A stretch of DNA of 64,000 nucleotides. It comes from Octopus vulgaris. Lineage: Eukaryota. Both the position numbers and the translations under genes were made by a program. The stretch's first letter is position 1; the number at the start of each line of letters is the position of its first letter. Shown here piece after piece: positions 3,253-63,680 of this stretch. The stretch spans positions 10,540,001-10,604,000 of the forward strand of contig OX597836.1 in NCBI GenBank assembly GCA_951406725.2. The letters are read 5' to 3'. The notes under the pieces were generated by a model that had not been told where the DNA came from, did no database searches, and was given only the letters and a program-made list of their open reading frames with translations.

Positions 3253-3693
3253 CACACGTATATATATATAGGATAAATGTAAAAAAACACAAACTGGGAC
3301 AAGAACGCAAAACATTTAGAAGACGATACAAAAGAACGGACGGGACATTCGAAGCCTTCGATCTTCAGTCAAAAACCGGATCATCTTCGCAATTTCGGCT
3401 GATTAATTTTGACTTTGATTGCTCCGACCTGGCCAGCCCCAAAGGAAAATCTAAGCCAAGCGCATTAGATTCCTTGGAAGAAAGCCTCGAATGTATACAA
3501 AACAAGGACGGGAACGAATAAGAATACATACCACAGGCTTCTTTCAGTTTCCGTCTACCAAATCCACTCACAAGGCTTTGGTCGGCCCGAGGCTATAGTA
3601 GAAGACACTTGCCCAAGGTGACACGCAGTGGGACTGAACCCAGAACCATGTGGTTTGTAAGCAAGCTACTTACCACACAGCCACTCCTGCGCC
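2955..3693 (-). mobile_element. SINE family A, interrupted in its internal microsatellite by a ~260-bp hammerhead-like element
   Basis: 3' part 2955-3250 and 5' part 3535-3693 flank the insert at about 3270-3525. Confidence 0.8.
3362..3422 (-). ncRNA. Permuted hammerhead-like motif, family 1 copy 1 (4-nt insertion at the cleavage site)
   Basis: Minus strand GCAAUC-aaag-UCAAAA..AGCC GAAA UUGC..UUUUGA CUGAAGA. Confidence 0.45.
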
Positions 3694-13388: not shown

Positions 13389-13475
13389 ATAAAAATAATT
13401 ACAGACATGGACAAGAACATGAAACGCCACAGAGACGACACAAGAACCACAGGACGGGACATTCGAAGCCCTCAG

Positions 13476-13532
13476 TCATCAGTCAAGAACCAGATCATCT
13501 TAGCAATTTCGGCTGATTAATCTTGAGATTGC
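13476..13532 (-). ncRNA. Permuted hammerhead-like motif, family 1 copy 2 (most intact)
   Basis: Minus strand GCAAUC|UCAAGA UUAAUCAGCC GAAA UUGC (14 nt) UCUUGA CUGAUGA CUGA; 5-bp stem III, 6-bp stem I, AUC triplet. Confidence 0.6.
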
Positions 13533-13605
13533 TCCGATATGGCAGCCCGCCATCTAAGCCAAGTGCATTAGATCCCTGAAGATTCCACATAAGAAAGCTT
13601 ATACA

Positions 13606-24280: not shown

Positions 24281-24824
24281 TGGCAGGGTTTGTGCGAAGC
24301 CTCTCCTACTCTTTCGTCCTTGAAACTTGTATTGTTCTGATGCAATAACGACGAACGAAACAAAAAAAAAAGCATTCAATATCATAAAGTAGAGTATTAA
24401 TTTCACTTGGCCATCTTAAACTAAGATAAACAACTATTTCTTTGTTTCCCCGTGAGAAAGTCTCACTAATATTTTTTTGTATTAGTCACGTATGTATATT
24501 TTAAATAGTTAACGCTCTACAGACGAATTTTGACAATTTACCGACCTCATATTTGAAGTTTCACGCAGTTTTTCAGAGGAACAATAATGAACTGCGTGAG
24601 AACAGGAAAGCCCTAAGTTCTTTCTAGTGTTGGTTTCAGCTACACAAATTCTCTGTCGGTTTCTCAGTCTGTATCTTAATGTATGCACATCAATATGCAT
24701 TTATGCACATAACTGCACAAGTGTGCATATGTGTATTTGTATATGCATATACAAATATATACAGTTGTATATACATATACATATCTGTTATTTGGGCTTT
24801 TGTAGAAGCAACTGCCTTCGAAGA

Positions 24825-24894
24825 CCCATAAAAGTTGTCGATCACTGCTCGAAATGAGGAGTAGATGGACAGCCGACAACTCTGATGAAGGGTC
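24825..24894 (+). ncRNA. Permuted hammerhead-like motif, family 2
   Basis: CCCAUA aa AGUUGUCG AUCACUGCUC GAAA UGAG (15 nt) CGACAACU CUGAUGA A GGGU; 8-bp stem I, GGGU/GCUC stem II. Confidence 0.45.
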
Positions 24895-25009
24895 GTTCTT
24901 TATGTTACTTGTCCTAATTACCATTTGCTTCTCTCGTTGTTTGCGTATTGAGCTCATTTGTTTTTGTATTTCATGTTGTTTACGATTTGTGACGTCCTGT
25001 ACCCATATA

Positions 25010-25073
<64 letters not shown>

Positions 25074-27407: not shown

Positions 27408-27730
27408 GTATATGCATACATAACGTCGCTGGTAGTGACTCGGAAGTTTCAGTCAGTTAAACCATCGTCAACCGAAACTCCGAAGTCACTGTCAACAGTT
27501 TTCTTGCATAAAAATAACACATTTGTACTCTACAAAAGTAACACATCAGATAAAAATTGTTTTTATTATAACTGAGCATAAAAAAACAAACATTTATTTA
27601 TTAATCATATACATACATACATATACATATATATATATATCTTCTTTCCTGAGCGTCAAATAATACTTTAATTGTTCCACGTCCTCGCGTTGCTGTGTTT
27701 TTTTCTGTGTTTTCTTGTTTGGATTAACTA

Positions 27731-29017: not shown

Positions 29018-29139
29018 CAAAAATTTTGATTCAAATGAATATGGTACTTAATTTAGATGCACCAGAATTCTGTGTGGTGTTATCCATAAAAATCCGTGGG
29101 GTGATTATAATCAAAATAAGCAACAAGAACGACTCCGGT

Positions 29140-29231
29140 AATTTGGTACGATCGTTTCGTACTACATCATTTTATTAAATGTTGTAAGTATTACAACAGA
29201 TTTAAGATGCTGAGTACTCGTCAGCCAATTA
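29140..29231 (-). ncRNA. Type I hammerhead ribozyme (left arm of inverted duplication)
   Basis: Reverse complement of 29314-29406 with the core intact. Confidence 0.8.
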
Positions 29232-29313
29232 TAGAGGTTTTCCATTAATACAAATCAAGTGGCAACATTTTCAACATTGATTTGAAAACTTTTGTATTAA
29301 TGGAAAACCTCTA

Positions 29314-29406
29314 TAATTGGCTGACGAGTACTCAGCATCTTAAATCAGTTGTAATACTTACAACATTTAATAAAATGATGTAGTACGAAACGATCGTACC
29401 AAATTA
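29314..29406 (+). ncRNA. Type I hammerhead ribozyme
   Basis: UUGG CUGACGA GUACU [long hairpin] AGUAC GAAA CGAUC GUA|CCAA; palindromic stem III ACGAUCGU; predicted cut after 29398. Confidence 0.82.
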
Positions 29407-29434
29407 CCGGAGTCATTCTTGTTGCTTATTTTGA

Positions 29435-30740: not shown

Positions 30741-31137
30741 AACACAACAACCTGTATTTTTACTTTCCCTGTGATACGCTGCTTGCTTTATTCTCTAATA
30801 ATAATAAAAATAATAATAATAGAGAATAATGACAATAATAAATGATAGGCCAACAACATATAGTAATACTGAAAGTGGTTTCTGTTCAGTTTGGCCCACG
30901 TAATATACAAACGTGGCGCGGATTGCGTTTGAAGGTATTTTCTCAGTTTTTATTTAATTCTGCTTTTTTTTATGTTCCATCAAACGGGGTTGGCTGGTGG
31001 AGGGCAAACGGACTGAGCCGAACATTTCACACATGTAAACAAAACTGCTTTTAGGACTATATAACATGCGTGTGTGTGTGTTTGTGTTTGTTTGTTTTTG
31101 TTTTGTGTGTGTGTGTATGTGTGTGTTTGTGTGTGTA

Positions 31138-31443
<306 letters not shown>

Positions 31444-31522: not shown

Positions 31523-31577
<55 letters not shown>

Positions 31578-31588
31578 ATCCAGTTAGC

Positions 31589-31642
31589 TCAAGACATCAT
31601 CAGGAGGAACAACGTCCAGTTTCGGCTCCGACTCCTCTACCG
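31589..31642 (-). ncRNA. Permuted hammerhead-like motif, family 3
   Basis: Minus strand CGGUA|GAGGAG UCGGAGCC GAAA CUG (7 nt) UUCCUC CUGAUGA UGUCUUGA. Confidence 0.55.
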
Positions 31643-32059
31643 TTTTGACGTGGCACTTTCGGGGGTGTCTTCAACTCTGGTATTGAGTGCATGTCTTCTT
31701 TCTTCTTCTTTCTTCTGTTCCCTGGCCCCTTCGATGTAGCGTCAACGAGTGTACCTTCGAAACACGCATTGAGTCGAAACAGGGGCAGCTGATGAAGGGG
31801 AATTTTCCTTGTATTGTTTGTCTTGTTCTCTGTTTTTTCGTTGTTAAAAAAAGTCCGTTTCCTTGTTTGATTTTATGTTTTCGTTTCTCGTTGTGTTCTA
31901 CGTTTATTTGTGGTGTCCTGTACTCATATATGCATGTATATATACATATAGATGTAGGTATGTACATATATGTATGTATGTATGCATTTGTTTTATTTAT
32001 TAAATTGTTATTATATATATATATATATATATATTATTATTATTATTATTATTATTATT

Positions 32060-32563
32060 GAGTGAGCGAGCAGAGCATGCCATCAAAGTGACACTGGGGT
32101 AAAATATACGAAGCCCAGTATACCCATCATGACTACCCGTCTGATAAGGGTACACCAGGCACATGCATCACAACCATATGTGCGCGACATGGTGATCTCA
32201 TATCAAGATAAACAGCACATGACCTTGCAGGTGGAGCCCAGTTAGAATTTTCTTCAGATCGAGTAACCCATCCTGCTCAAAAGGTCCCTGAATAAGGGTT
32301 GTTTAAGGACGTTGAACGAAACACCTATGTTTCCAGAGGTGAATTATTCAAACCCCAAAGAATCCTTCTCAACACATGGCTATGATGCTCCCCCACTACT
32401 TCTGCTCGTGATCAGAGATGCACATATCGTCAGCCACTAAGGGACATGCTCAACTGGCTAAGGTCAAACAACTGACAAGCAAATCTGTGGTATTGAGCAG
32501 AATATTTGCTGTATTATCTTTTATACCAAGACAAAACAATGTACATGATAACACTTCCAATCA

Positions 32564-33768: not shown

Positions 33769-33787
33769 TATATATATATATTCAAAA

Positions 33788-33991
33788 TGTGACCGCGTGT
33801 GTACCGTCGGCAATTTTTTTTCTTACGTCTTCCCTTCCCTGGATCTTTCCTTTTCCTATGTTTCCGACGAAGAGCTCCGCTCCAAACGTAAAACTTCTTC
33901 CCTTCCTTCCTGAGCGTCCAATAATACTATATTTGTTCCACGTCCTCGCGTTGTTGTGTTTTCTCTTTGTGTTTTCATGTTTGGATTAACT
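33788..33991 (+). mobile_element. Sister of the 31138 element; minimal hammerhead at 33860-33894 with a G12C change
   Basis: GUUU CCGACGA AGAGCUCCGCUC CAAA C GUA|AAAC. Confidence 0.65.
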
Positions 33992-34116
33992 TTATATATA
34001 TATATATATATTTCTCACTCCTATCTTTCTCAATCCGCCGCCCGCAGTCGAGTTAAGAGATTATGTTTTCGTCTTCTTAGCTTTCTGTATTTTTATGCTC
34101 TATATAAATATATTTG

Positions 34117-40240: not shown

Positions 40241-40358
40241 AATATATATAAGATGCAAAATGGGACAAGAAGCAAAACATCCGGTGATACAAAAAGGGAC
40301 AGCAAAACATCCAGATAGACGATACAAAAAACAAGGACGGGTCATTCGAAGCTTTCTA

Positions 40359-40415
40359 TCCTCAGTCAAGAACCGGATCATCCTCGCAATTTCGGTTGAC
40401 TAATCTTGAAATTGC
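40359..40415 (-). ncRNA. Permuted hammerhead-like motif, family 1 copy 3
   Basis: Minus strand GCAAUU|UCAAGA UUAGUCAACC GAAA UUGC (14 nt) UCUUGA CUGAGGA. Confidence 0.55.
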
Positions 40416-40730
40416 TCCAATCTGGCCAGCCCCAAGGAAAAACAAAGCTAAGAGCATTAGATACCTTGGAAGAAAGCACCGCTCAGTGACTAAAGAAAAT
40501 AGTCTAATAATGGGTCACATAAGCCCTCGACAGAAAAAAAGTACGTTTTTTCTGTACGCGTGGGACTCGAACCCACACTCCCATGTAGCAGGCTTGAGCA
40601 CTTGTGAAGATCTCTTCATATCAAAACATTGGTTGCCTTGTTAATTCATAAATGAAGTACACTCTCTCTGTCTATCTGTCTGTCTGTCTGTCTATCTCTC
40701 TCATACACCCCACTCGCATACATATACATG

Positions 40731-44660: not shown

Positions 44661-45209
44661 AATTAACATAAGATGTACAAGAAGTGCGCATACTAAACTT
44701 TGTGGCAGTCAGTGAGTAGAAGAACACCACACACTCACAAACACGCACACACTCTCACAGATTGAGAAAGTATCACCAGTGTCAGGGAAGGAGGAGGAGA
44801 GAGTGTATATGACAGTGTTTATGCTAGAAGTTATATAAATAAGAAACAAAATAACAGCGATTAGCATTTTCACGTTGAAGTCAGCCGGAACGTATTAAGA
44901 ATGAATATGTACGCCATTGTTTTGCTTTATGTAACTTTATATTAAGATATTGTTGTATTTTGGGATGGTTATTTTTTTTTCTGTGATGAGCAGAAGAGCA
45001 GAATGGAGTAAGGGGAGCAAGAGCACACACGAAAACGAAATGTGTTGCTTAATAGGTCACAGATGTGTAACGAAAGATTTCCGGACAATGGACGAGTGTT
45101 AAAAAATAAGAACAGTAAAATAAGAACGAGTGAAGAACAAATATATAGTGCGAGTGTTTATTTGGCAAAAAATGACCTCCCGAAATACAATAATATCTGT
45201 TTCAACTCA

Positions 45210-45980
45210 AGGCGGTGAGCTGGTAGAAACGTTAGCACGCCGGGCGAAATGCGTAGCCGTATTTCGTCTGCGGGTTACGTTCTGAGTTCAAATTCCGCCG
45301 AGGTCGATTTTGCCTTTCATCCTTTCGGGGGTCGATTAAATAAGTACCAGTTACGCACTAGGGTCGATATAATCGACTTAATCCGTTTATCTGTCCTTGT
45401 TTGTCCTCTCTGTGTGTAGCCCCTTGTAGGTAGTAAAGAAATAGGTATTTCGTCTGCCGCTACGTTCTGAGTTCAAATTCCGCCGAGGTCAACTTTGCCT
45501 TTCATCCTTTCGGGGTCGATTAAATAAGTACCAGTTACGCACCTGGGTCGATGTAATCGACATAATTCATGTGTCTGTCCTTGTTTGTCCTCTCTGTGTT
45601 TAGCCCCATGTGGGTAGTAAAGAAATAGGTATTTCGTCTGCCGCTACGTTCTGAGTTCAAATTCCGCCGAGGTCGACTTTGCCTTTCATCCTTTCGGGGG
45701 TCGATTAAATAAGTACCAGTTACGCACTAGGGTCGATATAATCGACTTAATCCGTTTATCTGTCCTTGTTTGTCCTCTCTGTGTGTAGCCCCTTGTGGGT
45801 AGTAAAGAAATAGGTATTTCGTCTGCCGCTGCGTTCTGAGATCAAATTCCGCCGAGGTCGACTTTGCTTTTCATTCTTTCGGGGTCGATAAATTAAGTAC
45901 CTGTTACGCGCTGGGGTCGATGTAATCGACTTAATCCCTCTGTCTGTCCTTGTTTGTCCCCTTGTGGGCAATAAAGAAAT
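45210..45980 (+). mobile_element. SINE family B with four tandem body units
   Basis: Single head followed by ~185-bp repeats. Confidence 0.88.
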
Positions 45981-46642
45981 ATATATCTGAGTTTTCTCAA
46001 CACATGAAACTATTAGCAGGAGATACAAATAATATGCGTGTGTGTGTGTGTATTTGTCTCCCAACACCGGTTGTCAAGCGGTGTTGGGTGTGTTTATGTC
46101 CCCATAACTCAACAGTTCGACAAAAAAAGACCTATAGAATAACTACCAGGCTTAAAATACATTCGATACATTCGAGTTGATAAATTCTTGAAAACGGTGC
46201 CCCAGTATGGCCGCAGTCCAATGTCTGAAACAAGCAGAAGGTGAAAGATACCACTCATTGTTCACGTAGGCCCTTAAAACATTGTCAAGGGTTGCTCTAA
46301 ATTCTTTGACGTGTATCGAGAACAAAAATAGACCAACATCTCCCTCCATTGTTACTTTAAAATGTCAAGGGCAAACTGCTGGTACTCGAGTAATGATAAT
46401 AGAAGATTAAGGATTTACAATAGAGGATAGGGATTTCGTGGGACTTGTCAGCTAAATTATAAGTGGGCCCTGTTGCGATATTCTTTCGAAAGCCATAAAT
46501 TACAGGAATATTTCACACTCGACATTCCGTGGCATCTTTCTTCACAAATGATCCTCTTCACTTCTTTGATGTTTTTGCTCATTCTTCACGTTCTGTGTTT
46601 CAAATGTTGCGCTTTATTTGTGTATGTTTCTTTATGTGTGTG

Positions 46643-49538: not shown

Positions 49539-50012
49539 GAGTGAGAGAGCAGTGCATGTCATCAAAGTGACACTGGGGTAAAATATACCAAGCCCAGTAT
49601 ACCCATCATGACTACCCGTCCGATAAGGGTACACTAGGCACATGCATCACAACCATATGTGCGTGGCATGGTGATTTCATATCAAGATAAACAGCATATG
49701 ACCTTGCAGGTGGGGCCCAGTTAGAATTTTCTTCTGGTCGAGTAACTCATCCCGCTCAAAAGGTCCCTGAATAAGGGTTGTTTAAGGATGTTGAACAAAA
49801 CACCCATGTTTCCAAAGGTGAATTATTCAAACCCCAAAGAATCCCTCTCATCACATGGCTACGATGCTCCCCCACTACTTCTGCTCGTGATCAGAGATGC
49901 ACATATCGTCAGCCACTAAGGGACATGCTCAACTGGTTAAGGTCAAACAACTGACAAATAAATCTGTGGTATTGAGCAGAATATTTGCTGTAGCCCATCT
50001 TTTATACCAAGA

Positions 50013-50076
<64 letters not shown>

Positions 50077-50536
50077 GAGTGAGAGAGCAGTGCATGCCAT
50101 CAAGGTGACACTGGGTTAAAATATACGAAGCCCAGTATACCCATCATGATTACCCGTCCGATACGGGTACACCAGGTACATGCATCACAAATATATGTGC
50201 GTGACATGGTGATCTCATATCAAGATAAACAGCACATGACCTTGCAGGTGGGGCCCAGTTAGAATTTTCTGCTGGTCGAGTAACTCATCCCGCTCGAAAG
50301 GTCCCTGAATAAGGGTTGTTTAAGGATGTTGAACGAAACACCAATGTTTCCAGAGGTGAATTGTTCAAACCCCAAAGAATCCCTCTCAACACACGGCTAT
50401 GATGCTCCCCCACTACTTCTGCTCGTGATCAGAGATGTACACATCGTCAGCCACTAAGGGACATGCTCAACTGGTTACGGTCAAACAACTGACAAACAAA
50501 TCTGTGGTATTGAGCAGAATATTTGCTGTAGCCCAT
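49539..50536 (-). mobile_element. Two tandem copies of the (TAA)n-targeted element separated by (TTA)n
   Basis: 49539-50014 and 50077-50536; both begin GAGTGAGAGAGCAGTGCATG immediately after (TTA)n. Confidence 0.75.
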
Positions 50537-58520: not shown

Positions 58521-58824
58521 ATGGTTGCTGCTGCAAACTCCGAGAACCAGATGCCCCAAATGGCAAACAACATCCACCCCGAAGCTGCTAACTGTACAGA
58601 GAACAACGTTTCTACAACAGCGAACCAGGTGAATTCGGAAGATGGCGATAACAACGGCAATAGAAATGCAAATTTTTGGTCTTACATGGCATTGGGATGG
58701 GACTGCGTAAGAACTATAATTGGACTTCTTTACCTATTTCTGGAGACAGCCTTGAAACAGCTCTTGCCAGTGAAATACCAGTCTAAGAATATCAAAGGTT
58801 ACAATGTATTAATCACCGGAGCTG
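58521..58824 (+). CDS. Short-chain dehydrogenase/reductase, SDR16C type (epidermal retinol dehydrogenase 2 / RDH10 / HSD17B11-like), first coding exon
   Basis: ATG 58521 opens MVAAANSEN...FWSYMALGWDCVRTIIGLLYLFLETALKQLLPVKYQSKNIKGYNVLITGA-G: a hydrophobic anchor followed by the Rossmann start VLITGAG. Donor G|GTATGT at 58824/58825 (phase 1). The start Met is uncertain (in-frame ATGs at 58521, 58551, 58560, 58686). Confidence 0.9.
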
Positions 58825-58899
58825 GTATGTACCGTTTCGTTTTTGATTGTTATTCATTATTATTATTATTATTATTATTATTGTTTCTTTTTCTCTTAA

Positions 58900-59500
58900 G
58901 TCGACGAGCTGGCAGAATCGTTAGCACGCCGGGAGAAATGCTTAACAGTATTTTGTCTGACGTTCTGAGTTTAAATTCCGCCGAGGTCGATTTTGCCTTT
59001 CATCCTTTCGGGTTCGATAAATTAAGTAGCAGTTACGCACTGGGGTCGATGTAATCGACTTAATACCTTTGTCTGTCCTTGCTTGTCCCCTCTATATTTA
59101 GCCCCTTGTGGGTAGTAAAGAAATAGGTATTTCGTCTGTCGCTACGTTCTGAGTTAAAATTCAGCCGAGGTCGACTTTGCCCTTCATCCTTTCGGGGTCG
59201 ATAAATTAAGTACCAGTTACGCACTGAGGTCAATATAATCGACTTAATCCCTTTGTATGTCCTTGTTTGTCCCTCTATGTTTAGCCCCTTGTGGGCAATA
59301 AAGAAATAAGAAACGTTAGCATGCTGGGCGAAATACCTAGCGGTATTTCGTCTGCCGTTACGTTCTGAGTTCAAATTCCGCCGGGGTCGACTTTACCTTT
59401 CCGGGTCGATAAATTAAGTACCACTTGAGCACTGGGGTCAATGTAATCGACTATTCCCCTCCCCCAAATTTCAGGCCTTGTACCTATAACTGAAAGGATC
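58900..59500 (+). mobile_element. SINE family B array in SDR intron
   Basis: Head plus tandem units. Confidence 0.85.
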
Positions 59501-60578: not shown

Positions 60579-60610
60579 ATTCTCCATTATGTAAACCTTT
60601 CTATTTGCAG

Positions 60611-60795
60611 GAAGTGGCATTGGTCGTTGTTTAGCCACGAAATTTTCAGAGCTTGGTTGTACCTTGATTCTGTGGGATATCAACAAAGAGAATAATGAGG
60701 AAACGGCAGCCATGATACGTGCCAACGGCAAAACAGCCATTAGCTACGTATGTGACGTCAGTAGCAAGAACGATATCTACAGAGTCGCTGATAGG
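60611..60795 (+). CDS. SDR16C-type short-chain dehydrogenase, second coding exon (gene continues beyond the window)
   Basis: Acceptor tttctatttgcag|GA at 60610/60611 is phase-compatible with exon 1 and completes TGAGSGIG. Reads GSGIGRCLATKFSELGCTLILWDINKENNEETAAMIRANGKTAISYVCDVSSKNDIYRVADR, then donor |GTAAGT at 60796 (phase 0). The LWDIN and Y-CD-S...IYRVA motifs are typical of SDR16C. Confidence 0.93.
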
Positions 60796-61539
60796 GTAAG
60801 TTGATTTACATTTCTTTTTTGTGGTTTTGCTTGTAATAGTATCAAAGCCCCTTTGATACCAATCCGCCTGAACCCTTATCTGGTCCTATGGTTCAAAATC
60901 CTCGTTTTGCGATGATTTAAATTAACACTTTCCATCAGAACTTCTTGTTAATTGAACTCAGAACGGACGAAATACCGCTGAGCATTTTACCCGGGGTGTT
61001 TAACGATTCTACCCGCTCACCGCCTCGACAATATAAGAAATATTGGTTTCACATTTTCGCCCGTGACCTGCAATTGTGGGGGAGGGATAAGTCGATTATA
61101 TCGACCCCAGTGTTCAACTGGTACCTATTTTATCGATTCCGGAAGGATGAACGGCAAAGTCAACCTCAGTCGCAGCTGAACCCGGAACGTAAAGACGGAC
61201 GAAATCCGCTGAGCTTCTTGGTTGGCGTGCTAACGATTTTACCAGCTTGCCACCTTGACATTGGGAAAAACATTACATCATATATTGGCTTAAATTCAGT
61301 TTGAGACTCTAGTTCAATAACAACAAGGTTATTTTTATATATTTCACCTGCAACCTTGCTTGTTATTCTTCGCTGGGGAAATATTTATAGAATTGATATG
61401 CTTCTGGCTGATCTCAAACTGGCAAATAAAGCGACACCATGAAAAATTTGCATCGCATAGATCTATGCTTGTGGTTTATCAGATGTGACCCTCGGAATAT
61501 CGACAATGTTAAAATGCTGCCGTTCAGTAAGTAAATTCT

Positions 61540-63260
61540 ATTCTAGTTTAGGCACAAGGCCCGACATTTTTGGGTTAGGGGGCCGGTCGATTAGATTGAC
61601 CCCAGTATGCAACTGGTACTTAATTTATCGACCCCGAAAGGATGAACGGCAAAGTCAACCTTGGTGGTATTTGATCTCAGAACGTAAAGACAGACGAAAT
61701 ACCGCTATGCATTTCGCCCGGCGTGCTAACGTTTCTTATTTCTTTACTGCCCACAAGGGGCTAAACATAGAGGGGGAAAACAAGGACAGACAAACGGATT
61801 TAAGTCGATTATATCGACCCCAGTGCGTAACTGGTACTTATTTAATCGACCCCGAAAGGATGAACGGCAAAGTTGACCTCGGCGGAATTTGAACTCAGAA
61901 CGTAGCGGCAGATGAAATACCTATTTCTTTACTACCCAGAAGGGGCTTAACATAGAGAGGACAAACAAGGACAGACAAACGGATTAACTCGATTACATCG
62001 ACCCCACTGTGTAACTGGTACTTATTTAATCGACCCCGAAAGGATGAAAGGCAAAGTCGACCTCGGTGGAATTTGAACTCAGAACGTAAAGACAGACGAA
62101 ATACCTATTTCTTTATTACCCACAAGGGGCTAAACATAGAGGGGACAAACAAGGACAGACATAGGTATTAAGTCGATCGCATCGACCCCAGTGCGGAACT
62201 GGTACTTAATTTATCGACCCCGAAAGGACGAAAGGAAAAGTCGACCTCGGCGGGATTTGAACTCAGAACATAAAGACAGACGAAATACCGCTATGCATTT
62301 CGCCCGGCGTGCCAACGTTTCTGCCAGCTCACCGCCTCTTTCAGTAAGTAAATTAACATCTCAGGGCTGCAGCGCGTATTGCGTTTGTTAATATATTTCA
62401 TCCATTTGAAACGCTCGAATGCTTAGAAATAAATAAATAAATAATAAATAACTTGATGGATGATGTAACAGAAACAATGTAACCCAGAATAGACAACATA
62501 CAATAATAATGATTTCAAATTTTCGCAGCAGGCCAGCATGTTCGAGAGAGTGTTAAGTCGATGACATCGATCCTAGTGCTCGATTGTTCCTTGTATGAAA
62601 GGAAAATCGACCATGGCGGAATTTGAACTCAGAACGTACGAAATGCCGCCAAGTATTTTACCACTCGTGCTAACAATTCTTTTCTACTCTAGGCACAAAG
62701 CCCAATATTTTTAGGGCGGGGCTAGTCGATTAGATCGGTCCCAGTATGCAATTGGTACTCAATTTATCGACCCCGAAAGGATGAAGGGCAAAGTTGATCT
62801 CGGCGGAATTTGAACTCAGAACGTAAAGTCAGACGAAATATCTATATCTTTACTACCCACAAGGGGCTAAACACAGAGGGGACACACAAGGACAGACAAA
62901 CGGATTTAAGTCGATTATATCGACCCCAGTGCGTAACTGGTACTTAATTCATCGACCCCGAAAGGATGAAAGGCAAAGTCGACCTCGGCGGAATTTGAAC
63001 TCAGAGCGTAGCGGCAGACGGAATACCTATTTCTTTATTACCCACAAGGGGCTAAACACAGAGGGGAGAAACTTGGACAGACACAGGTATTAAGTCGATT
63101 ACATCGACTCCAGTGCGTAACTGGTACTTAATTTATCGACCCCGAAAGGATGAAAGGCAAAGTAGACCTCGGCGGAATTTGAACTCAGTACGTAACGACA
63201 GACGAAATACCGCTATGCATTTCGCCCGGCGTGCTAACAATTCCGCCAGCTCGCCGCCTT
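61540..63260 (-). mobile_element. Two SINE family B tandem arrays (61540-62337, 62680-63260) in SDR intron
   Basis: Repeated ~185-bp units; each array ends in the head TGCCAGCTC(A/G)CCGCC. Confidence 0.88.
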
Positions 63261-63680
63261 AAGCTAGCTTCATCATAACAAAATTATTTAAAAGTGAATT
63301 CTTTATATTTTCAAAATTAATTTAAATAAATACTGTTTATTTCAATAGAAATATAATAACAAAAGAGTTAACTACAGTTCTTGTTTTTAGACTTTTTAAT
63401 GTCGTCACGCCAACAATTTGTTTTTTAAACATTTTTTCGGACAATTTAAAGAGTTTTATTGGCGATGAGGTGACAGAATCGGAGCGGAAAAAATTCCTTA
63501 CATTATTTGTTCCAGCTCTTTGCTTTTTTGCCAGCTTAATTTATTTCGGCTTTTTGCGTCCCGGGTTCAAATCCTACTGAGGATAATTTGGTTTTTATCC
63601 TTCTGAAGGTCGGTAAAATAAAGGGCTAGTCAAGTAAGGAGGTGAATTGAATCAAGTACCAATCAGCGCGAAAAGGCTAT

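Follow-up and report, generated by a model that had tools for sequence, protein, structure and literature searches.

We find that positions 31642-31589 on the minus strand of the window, the whole 64,000-nt stretch of Octopus vulgaris DNA that was analysed, are a decayed copy of a high-copy repeat that lies beside a (TA)n tract. These positions read as part of a decayed 3'-end ribozyme module whose layout and target site point to a Naiad-type Penelope-like retroelement family. In this module an upstream bridge of three elements, X, H and Y, appears to take the place of the usual stem II of a hammerhead. We lean towards a ribozyme of this X/H/Y wiring that would be put together from two copies of the module.

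Direct reading of the minus strand bears out the letters from which an earlier note had proposed a permuted hammerhead at this place. The blocks follow in the order S (cleavage site), G (GAAA) and C (CUGAUGA). Stem III, CGGU/ACUG, has 4 bp including one G-U in the window copy, stem I, GAGGAG/UUCCUC, has 6 bp (-6.8 kcal/mol), and the NUH triplet between them is GUA (31640-31638), so that the predicted cut, 31638|31637, stands where the note had put it. The core words CUGAUGA (31603-31597) and GAAA (31623-31620) are both unbroken. The (TA)n tract that the note saw next to the motif runs from 31525 to 31575 and ends 13 nt away.

The comparison with dinucleotide shuffles that the note had called for was run within the window, using a descriptor for the S-G-C order (stem III of at least 4 bp, stem I of at least 5 bp) that was written post hoc, when the motif had already been seen. 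It has three matches, all on the minus strand (U16.1 at 31639, 13528 and 40411), two of which belong to one family, against a mean of 0.015 in 200 local dinucleotide shuffles (3/200 with one match). At the same stem thresholds the remaining five block orders, C-G-S among them, have 0 matches each in the window, and the Rfam hammerhead families (types I-III) have none there at the gathering threshold. The 54-mer by itself folds no better than its shuffles (z 0.18), and plus strand 31572-31690 folds worse than shuffles (z 0.99), the G-U pairs becoming mismatches. Other words were tried as hammerhead parts and rejected. By inspection, neither the upstream CUGAAGA (with the majority letter at 31674) as a canonical core nor GUC 31649-31647 as a canonical site finds a stem I/III in any combination. 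GAAA 31660-31657 as a catalytic G block has no stem I/III either and is better explained as the tetraloop of H.

Family letters were taken from contig pieces in 4 of 24 listed runs (four organism codes), over 31574-31930. Between 2051 and 6836 pieces per run match this interval in all four runs, indicating a high-copy repeat, with depth giving no copy number. The majority is depth-weighted and taken per position, without linkage between positions. Within the 54 nt, the window copy departs from it at 31611 (99%), 31618 (70-91%), 31627 (99%) and 31630 (>99%) in all four runs. Three of these majority letters restore one pair each, be it in IIIa, in IIIb or in the strand before GAAA; that at 31618 turns the G-U of stem III into G-C. 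The fourth position, 31630, falls within the link. X, too, is strengthened by a majority letter, at 31674 (U-G to C-G). Other variants listed within the 54 nt (31614, 31617, 31623 and 31624; 3-19%) are CpG-type decay, which at G12 amounts to 6-9% of family depth, and no variant reaches 8% in C3-A9 (31597-31603) or in the top strand of stem I (31632-31637) across the family.

These letters change the picture of the helices around the core. The "7-nt linker" of the earlier note pairs with 31654-31647, at -7.8 kcal/mol in the window copy (2.4% of shuffles). With majority letters the resulting helix IIIb (31616-31609/31654-31647) has 8 bp and -14.4 kcal/mol, a value reached by 0/2000 shuffles and 0/2891 window 20-mers. 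The upstream strand of X pairs with the strand after A9 at -16.8 kcal/mol (0.4% of shuffles), or -19.2 with majority letters. The wobble-rich direct stem II that the note had thought possible fares poorly: it has two mismatches and three G-U pairs and reaches -1.1 kcal/mol, equalled by 73% of 2000 shuffles, and with majority letters it reaches -3.3 kcal/mol, 21% of shuffles pairing equally well. The minimum-energy fold of the majority letters is nested, comprises X, IIIb and IIIa, and has -39.3 kcal/mol. The motif spans 31680-31580 plus about 9-10 nt that are absent here, about twice the compact length of ~54 nt that the note had given it.

The absent letters belong at 31655. Among the listed pieces that bridge this position, 10/11 are longer than the window copy (6 of them by 9-10 nt) and 1 is shorter; the window copy is without about 9-10 nt there. 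The letters inserted in relatives, known from four single-contig insertions and one loose-end consensus (0.63 agreement), consist of runs of G and C that would suit the second arm of H and a Y-top. In the window copy, 31629-31624 has no upstream partner (Y, 1 bp). Because Y-top is absent and three further changes weaken helices, the window copy is very probably inactive. The parts are collected in Table 1.

Table 1. Parts of the repeat and of the minus-strand motif.
Feature	Position	Strand	Remark
(TA)n tract, left border of the repeat	31525..31575		Naiad-preferred target type (PMC8557442, as far as its available text goes)
Left piece of the high-copy repeat, carrying the minus-strand motif	31576..31752		4/4 runs
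X-top (CCAG, AGUU, G, AAGACA)	31666..31680	-	pairs with the strand directly after A9
H 5' arm (5 nt) and GAAA tetraloop, not catalytic	31657..31665	-	31663 variant 77-87%; letters inserted behind 31655
Site of the absent ~9-10 nt	31655..31656	-	putative H 3' arm and Y-top
IIIb-top strand	31647..31654	-	pairing with 31616-31609
A4 bulge between IIIb and IIIa	31643..31646	-	0 nt on the opposite strand
Block S: IIIa top and GUA; predicted cut 31638|31637	31638..31642	-	descriptor
Stem I top strand	31632..31637	-	no variant of 8% or more
Y-bottom, ending in C11.1	31624..31629	-	private change at 31627 (majority 99%); partner is the absent Y-top
Block G: G12-A13-A14-A15.1 and IIIa bottom	31617..31623	-	G-U at 31618 is G-C in 70-91% of depth
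IIIb-bottom (the "7-nt linker"), running straight into stem I	31609..31616	-	private change at 31611
Stem I bottom strand	31604..31609	-	descriptor and pairing energy
Catalytic core C3-A9, CUGAUGA	31597..31603	-	no variant of 8% or more
X-bottom; first pair directly after A9	31580..31596	-	duplex energy against shuffles
Second motif of the same class: blocks G and C, block S missing	31752..31801	+	S in relatives' loose ends (3/4 runs)
U-rich tail and 3' end of the right piece, then TA-rich DNA	31802..31936	+	common to the repeat at 24790-25010

The repeat consists of a left and a right piece. No contig piece from the four runs spans 31752 or the whole stretch, and relatives of the left piece carry different letters beyond 31752; the two pieces may belong to a single element that has suffered a deletion at 31752, or may meet there in inverted orientation. 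A basic frame of 50 codons (31752-31603, minus strand) ends in TGA TGA within the CUGAUGA core; among longer proteins it has no relative, which is weak evidence. No RNA record is listed as containing this stretch, a result that has no bearing on its expression. Scans of viral_contigs gave 0, 35, 16 and 0 loci, 0/51 of which passed the hammerhead stem test in any order. Scans of metagenome_contigs gave 0 and 2 loci, both representing one chance match in coding-like DNA.

The right piece carries the plus-strand motif at 31752-31801. When its block S is supplied from loose ends of relatives, it has, by eye, a stem III of 5 bp, a stem I of 8 bp and a IIIb of about 10 bp, and the Octopus Naiad consensi have exactly the same stem I. 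Its sole frequent core variant is at N7 (U/A; 33-46% of depth). Partners for its X, sought in the left piece, were no better than chance (null 0.71). Positions 31802-31936 resemble the repeat at 24790-25010 (76% over 55 nt, E 2e-4). This repeat, on the plus strand, is a fourth, 5'-truncated family that retains IIIb and a stem I of 8 bp, whereas its Y is decayed. It is conceivable, though we think it unlikely, that 31576-31936 represents a short non-autonomous element of about 430 nt whose two strands each carry such a ribozyme, much as if a viroid-type RNA had become fixed in DNA.

Family 1 provides three further copies of the X/H/Y layout on the minus strand (3348-3502, 13462-13600 and 40345-40495), each with a U-rich tail that adjoins TA-rich DNA. 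Its H is a long hairpin, and its X reaches 15 bp at 3368. Y has 5 bp at 13482 (null 0.036) and 6 bp at 3368 (null 0.02), and has decayed to 2 bp at 40365, so that the G10.1-C11.1 helix, absent in the window copy (Y, 1 bp), forms in 2/3 family 1 copies. The copy at 13482 can also form a direct stem II of 4 bp. When just the contiguous part of X is counted, none of the six window motifs exceeds chance (null 0.2-0.75); significance is reached only by the whole X duplex of the 31589-31642 motif (0.4% of shuffles, as above). Family 1 and the 31589-31642 family share the GCCA/UGGU end of IIIb and the GCC before GAAA. Stem III of family 1 (GCAAUC with GAAAUUGC) equals that of the SGC-3 construct of Eckert et al., as given in the available text of PMC10085705, which may be chance.

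Several features of the window lie outside these motifs. The window as a whole is microsatellite-rich animal DNA. On the plus strand, 31137-31344 and 33786-33992, with a partial copy at 27641-27729, form a repeat that ends at (TA)n and is 85% alike over 212 nt; it carries a word set like that of minimal type I hammerheads, with U4 replaced by C. A near-perfect inverted repeat of about 300 bp lies beside (TA)n at ~29130-29430, is MITE-like and has CUGACGA in both arms. A 470-bp repeat, 94% alike, occurs once singly and once as a tandem pair (32060-32532, 49539-50013 and 50077-50536), and another repeat family has ~184-bp tandem units and many dispersed copies (45206-45981, 58895-59452, 61534-63263 and 1-334). 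A gene for a retinol dehydrogenase-like short-chain dehydrogenase has its first exons on the plus strand at 58521-58826 and ~60600-60700; the relatives with a name are two, from Argonauta (67%) and Octopus (88%), which indicates an octopod-like cephalopod as host.

We compared the motif with the consensi of Naiads, Penelope-like elements that favour (TA)n targets and for which Craig et al. 2021, in the available text of PMC8557442, report canonical hammerheads to be absent. The annotation there marks eight Naiad families "HHR_half_core", a label for which that text gives no structure, and also uses "HHR_core"; the Naiad_Plae and Acropora records carry neither mark. Six words from the window were searched in the portion of the PMC8557442 supplement available (584,131 characters). 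One 13-mer occurs there at a single place, in Naiad_Plae, and the other five words at none. Aligned by eye, Naiad_Plae agrees with the family majority at 24/25 positions over blocks S-G and 13/13 over I-bottom and core, a core total of 37/38, with 21/25 for the window copy over S-G. Its flanks are unrelated in sequence and yet pair, with 5 bp in X, 8 bp in H and 8 bp in IIIb, and its Y forms 6/6 pairs with the strand right before G12, which has the majority letters. X, H and Y are contiguous in this record, with no unpaired base between them (by eye). Alternatively, Naiad_Plae can form a direct stem II of 7 bp that leaves two bases over before GAAA.

This match bears on the alternative that short words fell into this arrangement by chance in a neutral repeat. 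Such a reading can draw on the missing Rfam hit at threshold, the folding z of 0.18 for the 54-mer and the post hoc descriptor. It is already largely refuted, and to our minds hardly credible, given the shuffle test (three matches against a mean of 0.015), the unpredicted 8-bp helix IIIb that majority letters complete (0/2000 shuffles) and the agreement at 37/38 positions with a Naiad 3' region whose flanking helices are compensated.

The same layout recurs in the Naiad file with different stem letters. Core words were followed at CTGATGA places 1-58 of 62, CTGACGA 1-15 of 23, CTGAGGA 1-15 of 25 and CTGAAGA 7-36 of 43, words broken across lines being missed. Among the matches listed, CTGATGA has 19 places in the Naiad file: 10 with the motif, 2 ambiguous and 7 elsewhere, mostly in ORFs. 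By eye and unscored, at least 10 records of the available file show the X/H/Y layout: three from Acropora, one from Clytia, Naiad-2_Movir, Naiad_Plae, Naiad-4_Dst, Naiad_Obim, Naiad_Ovul and Naiad_Esco, the genera being Acropora, Clytia, Morbakka, Pomphorhynchus, Darwinula, Octopus and Euprymna. Also by eye, the first Y pair in 9/10 of them is G-C, as in the canonical 10.1-11.1 pair, the base after A9 is A, C or U, X is imperfect in both Octopus records, and the letters of the Acropora, Clytia and Darwinula records allow no direct stem II. Y is weak in Naiad_Esco (Euprymna, named by its position in the file). The bulge is 5/0 in Naiad-2_Movir, and in Naiad-4_Dst a single bulged base separates a IIIa of 10 bp from a IIIb of 5 bp. 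Compensated helices across families were seen by eye.

Other Naiad records show other rearrangements. Six nematode records are, by eye, of type CSG: stem II is direct, and there is also a closing helix, which has 9-13 bp and in most of the six lies 0-2 nt from stem III. They are clean examples of a type published, in the text available, from two natural sequences only. Two records, chelicerate by file order, show S-G-C with a closing helix (by eye). In all, by-eye inspection of the accessible supplement finds rearranged hammerheads in at least 18 of 54 Naiad consensi, as judged from their letters. The record preceding Naiad-2_Movir has, by eye, twister-like conserved words at its 3' end.

The window motif shares with the Naiad clade the (TA)n target, into which the window copy is inserted, the position near a 3' end and the 37/38 core match. 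In contrast to the Naiad records, the window has no element ORF: none of its 106 frames of at least 120 aa is a Naiad ORF (N-terminal GIY-YIG, CxC, C-terminal RT), and the copy is a short fragment. Since there is no Naiad ORF near the motif, the link to Naiads rests on motif likeness and the (TA)n target, and the latter is not diagnostic alone because insertion into (TA)n is common to Neptune and Hydra. Stems I and Y and the core are near-identical between the octopod repeat (31604-31641) and the acanthocephalan Naiad_Plae as given in the supplement, X, H and IIIb being unrelated. This near-identity may reflect strong constraint on helices formed between copies, or horizontal transfer. The earlier note took this motif, its family 3, as independent support for the permuted architecture. 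A recurring order class with different stem sequences in different repeat families is indeed real, and the better reading of these families is that they diverged within a single Naiad-linked class and did not arise separately; nor is the order new, as it is that of type SGC (PMC10085705).

According to the text of PMC10085705 available to us, type SGC comprises HRIMA-1 and variants (Eckert, Friedrich, Weinberg and Weinberg 2023) and was validated in vitro, its examples coming from metatranscriptomes only, with no supported case in the genomes of known organisms. The window motif resembles it in the S-G-C order, the intact core, similar stem lengths, a short link from stem I to the strand before GAAA and a very short link from stem III to stem I. 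The published descriptor asks for a stem III of at least 4 bp (4-7) beyond the A-U pair and a direct stem II of a G-C plus 2-6 bp. Applied here, it finds the block order S, G, C, and three type-SGC features fail: the direct stem II has 0 bp beyond the G-C in the window copy and in the majority, which gains 4 bp only after a 1-nt bulge; stem III has 3 contiguous bp followed by a 4-nt bulge and 8 bp; and no helix connects stems I and II at their distal sides, the link strand pairing upstream in IIIb. Where type SGC has a direct stem II of 5 bp and a helix closing block C, the window motif appears to have the upstream X/H/Y bridge. Unlike type SGC, its stem III is extended by IIIb, and it is a high-copy nuclear repeat of an animal.

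The model of the earlier note amounts to an ordinary compact SGC monomer with a wobble-rich direct stem II. The S-G-C order suits this model, as do CUGAUGAUG and CGAAA, both fixed words of Eckert's descriptor in the available text, the majority letter at 31627, which repairs one pair of the direct stem, and the 7-bp direct stem possible in Naiad_Plae. The direct stem reaches just -1.1 and -3.3 kcal/mol (window and majority letters) against -16.8 and -19.2 for X, it is absent from the Acropora, Clytia and Darwinula records, and the published descriptor fails on stems II and III, which makes the compact monomer highly improbable. In PMC10085705, as available, six possible orders follow from the assumption that CUGAnGA is adjacent to its stem II strand, and the window motif breaks this assumption. 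Type CSG (Eckert 2023, two natural examples in that text) has the same cyclic block order, so that the window layout corresponds to this cycle opened between A9 and 10.1; type CSG keeps a direct stem II, and the six nematode Naiad records fit it whereas the window family does not.

In the X/H/Y layout that we favour, an intact module would be about 110 nt long. In the order of the chain, its first part would comprise X-top, hairpin H, Y-top, IIIb-top, the bulge, IIIa-top, the GUA site and I-top, and its second part Y-bottom, GAAA, IIIa-bottom, IIIb-bottom, I-bottom, CUGAUGA and X-bottom. Helix Y would provide the G10.1-C11.1 pair and serve as the working stem II, with X and H inserted between A9 and G10.1 and forming a four-way junction with the core. 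With the upstream bridge in place of stem II, the chain would be opened between A9 and G10.1. Among tested hammerheads, none is known to us that has an insertion of helices at 9/10. One extra base between A9 and G10.1 is frequent in natural hammerheads (PMC10085705 and PMC4209133, in the parts available).

A single chain would fold X, H, IIIb and IIIa without pseudoknots, with I and Y crossing them. The terminal loop of hairpin III would then hold the cut site together with I-top, Y-bottom and GAA, and the junction would keep Y-top, I-bottom and CUGAUGA unpaired. At their far ends, I, Y and IIIb would meet in a three-way junction, IIIb also continuing IIIa, and in the known hammerhead fold stem III points opposite to stem II (PMC4209133, available text). 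By a crude A-form count, IIIb of the window family is about 14 Å too short to join both ends, and IIIa/IIIb of Naiad-4_Dst, split by one base, probably cannot turn back; the short joints of 0-2 nt between closing helix and stem III in most of the six nematode records point the same way. As these helix lengths make it unlikely that one chain closes, we infer docking between copies: the loop of copy 1 would dock into the junction of copy 2 via helices I and Y, forming a complete hammerhead core, and the loop donor would be cut after A31638 (31638|31637). A tandem read-through transcript would provide both copies in its two pseudo-LTRs, and processing would therefore be confined to RNA of more than unit length.

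Closure of the same X/H/Y wiring within one chain, with IIIb kinked at the bulge or partly melted, is improbable in our judgement. The A4/0 bulge of the window motif and the 5/0 bulge of Naiad-2_Movir are candidate hinges, and type-SGC ribozymes whose links have 0 nt cleaved during transcription of templates with a single motif; for these published ribozymes with equally short links, the available text of PMC10085705 leaves concentration dependence unreported. However, IIIb is kept as a full helix with compensatory changes, falls about 14 Å short in the window family and is nearly continuous with IIIa in Naiad-4_Dst. Assembly from two copies also has precedents, since hammerheads of other Penelope-like elements work as dimers according to the available parts of PMC4209133 and PMC6765202.

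A further alternative, also quite unlikely, is a hammerhead-derived fold that does not cut, or cuts only with the element's protein, and acts as a binding or priming signal for the RT. In one Penelope-like element, Poseidon PAc, cleavage is protein-dependent and dispensable for insertion in vitro (PMC11167929, available text), and the nested fold here would hide the core from its own loop. Against a mere signal, CUGANGA, GAAA, NUH, stems I and III and G10.1-C11.1 are kept across five phyla, and the plus-strand motif varies often only at N7, a free position.

The proposed two-copy assembly likens the motif to the minimal type I hammerheads that, in the available text of Cervera and de la Pena 2014 (PMC4209133), sit in the pseudo-LTRs of canonical Penelope-like elements: both lie at the 3' end of a retroelement and would be assembled between tandem repeats. 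Minimal type I has the order C-G-S and exchanges strands in a missing or palindromic stem III, whereas in the window motif stem III is long and intramolecular and I and Y would form between copies. The same text reports Penelope-type hammerheads in opposite-strand pairs 100-700 bp apart.

A search of the openly licensed PubMed Central and bioRxiv literature found no Naiad hammerhead structures, no rearranged hammerheads in animal genomes and no helix insertions at 9/10, and the accessible text of PMC10162972 holds nothing on added helices. We regard it as an evenly balanced proposition that the Naiad hammerhead has a wiring outside the six block orders, with a core opened at A9/G10.1, a four-way junction and catalysis through loop-to-junction docking between copies. 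The X/H/Y form would then add a layout beyond the six orders proposed so far, and the two-copy model, if true, would describe a natural ribozyme gated by copy number. Animal genomes would commonly contain rearranged (SGC, CSG) hammerheads as a means of cutting tandem transcripts only, and the published SGC and CSG ribozymes may act as dimers too. Non-circularly permuted hammerheads have so far come from metatranscriptomes and a few metagenomes, none being supported in the genomes of known organisms, and the missing canonical hammerhead of Naiads has served as an argument that the elements may be able to do without the ribozyme. Both views would have to be revised, as the ribozyme would be present in wirings that standard descriptors and Rfam miss, at high copy and in at least six phyla.
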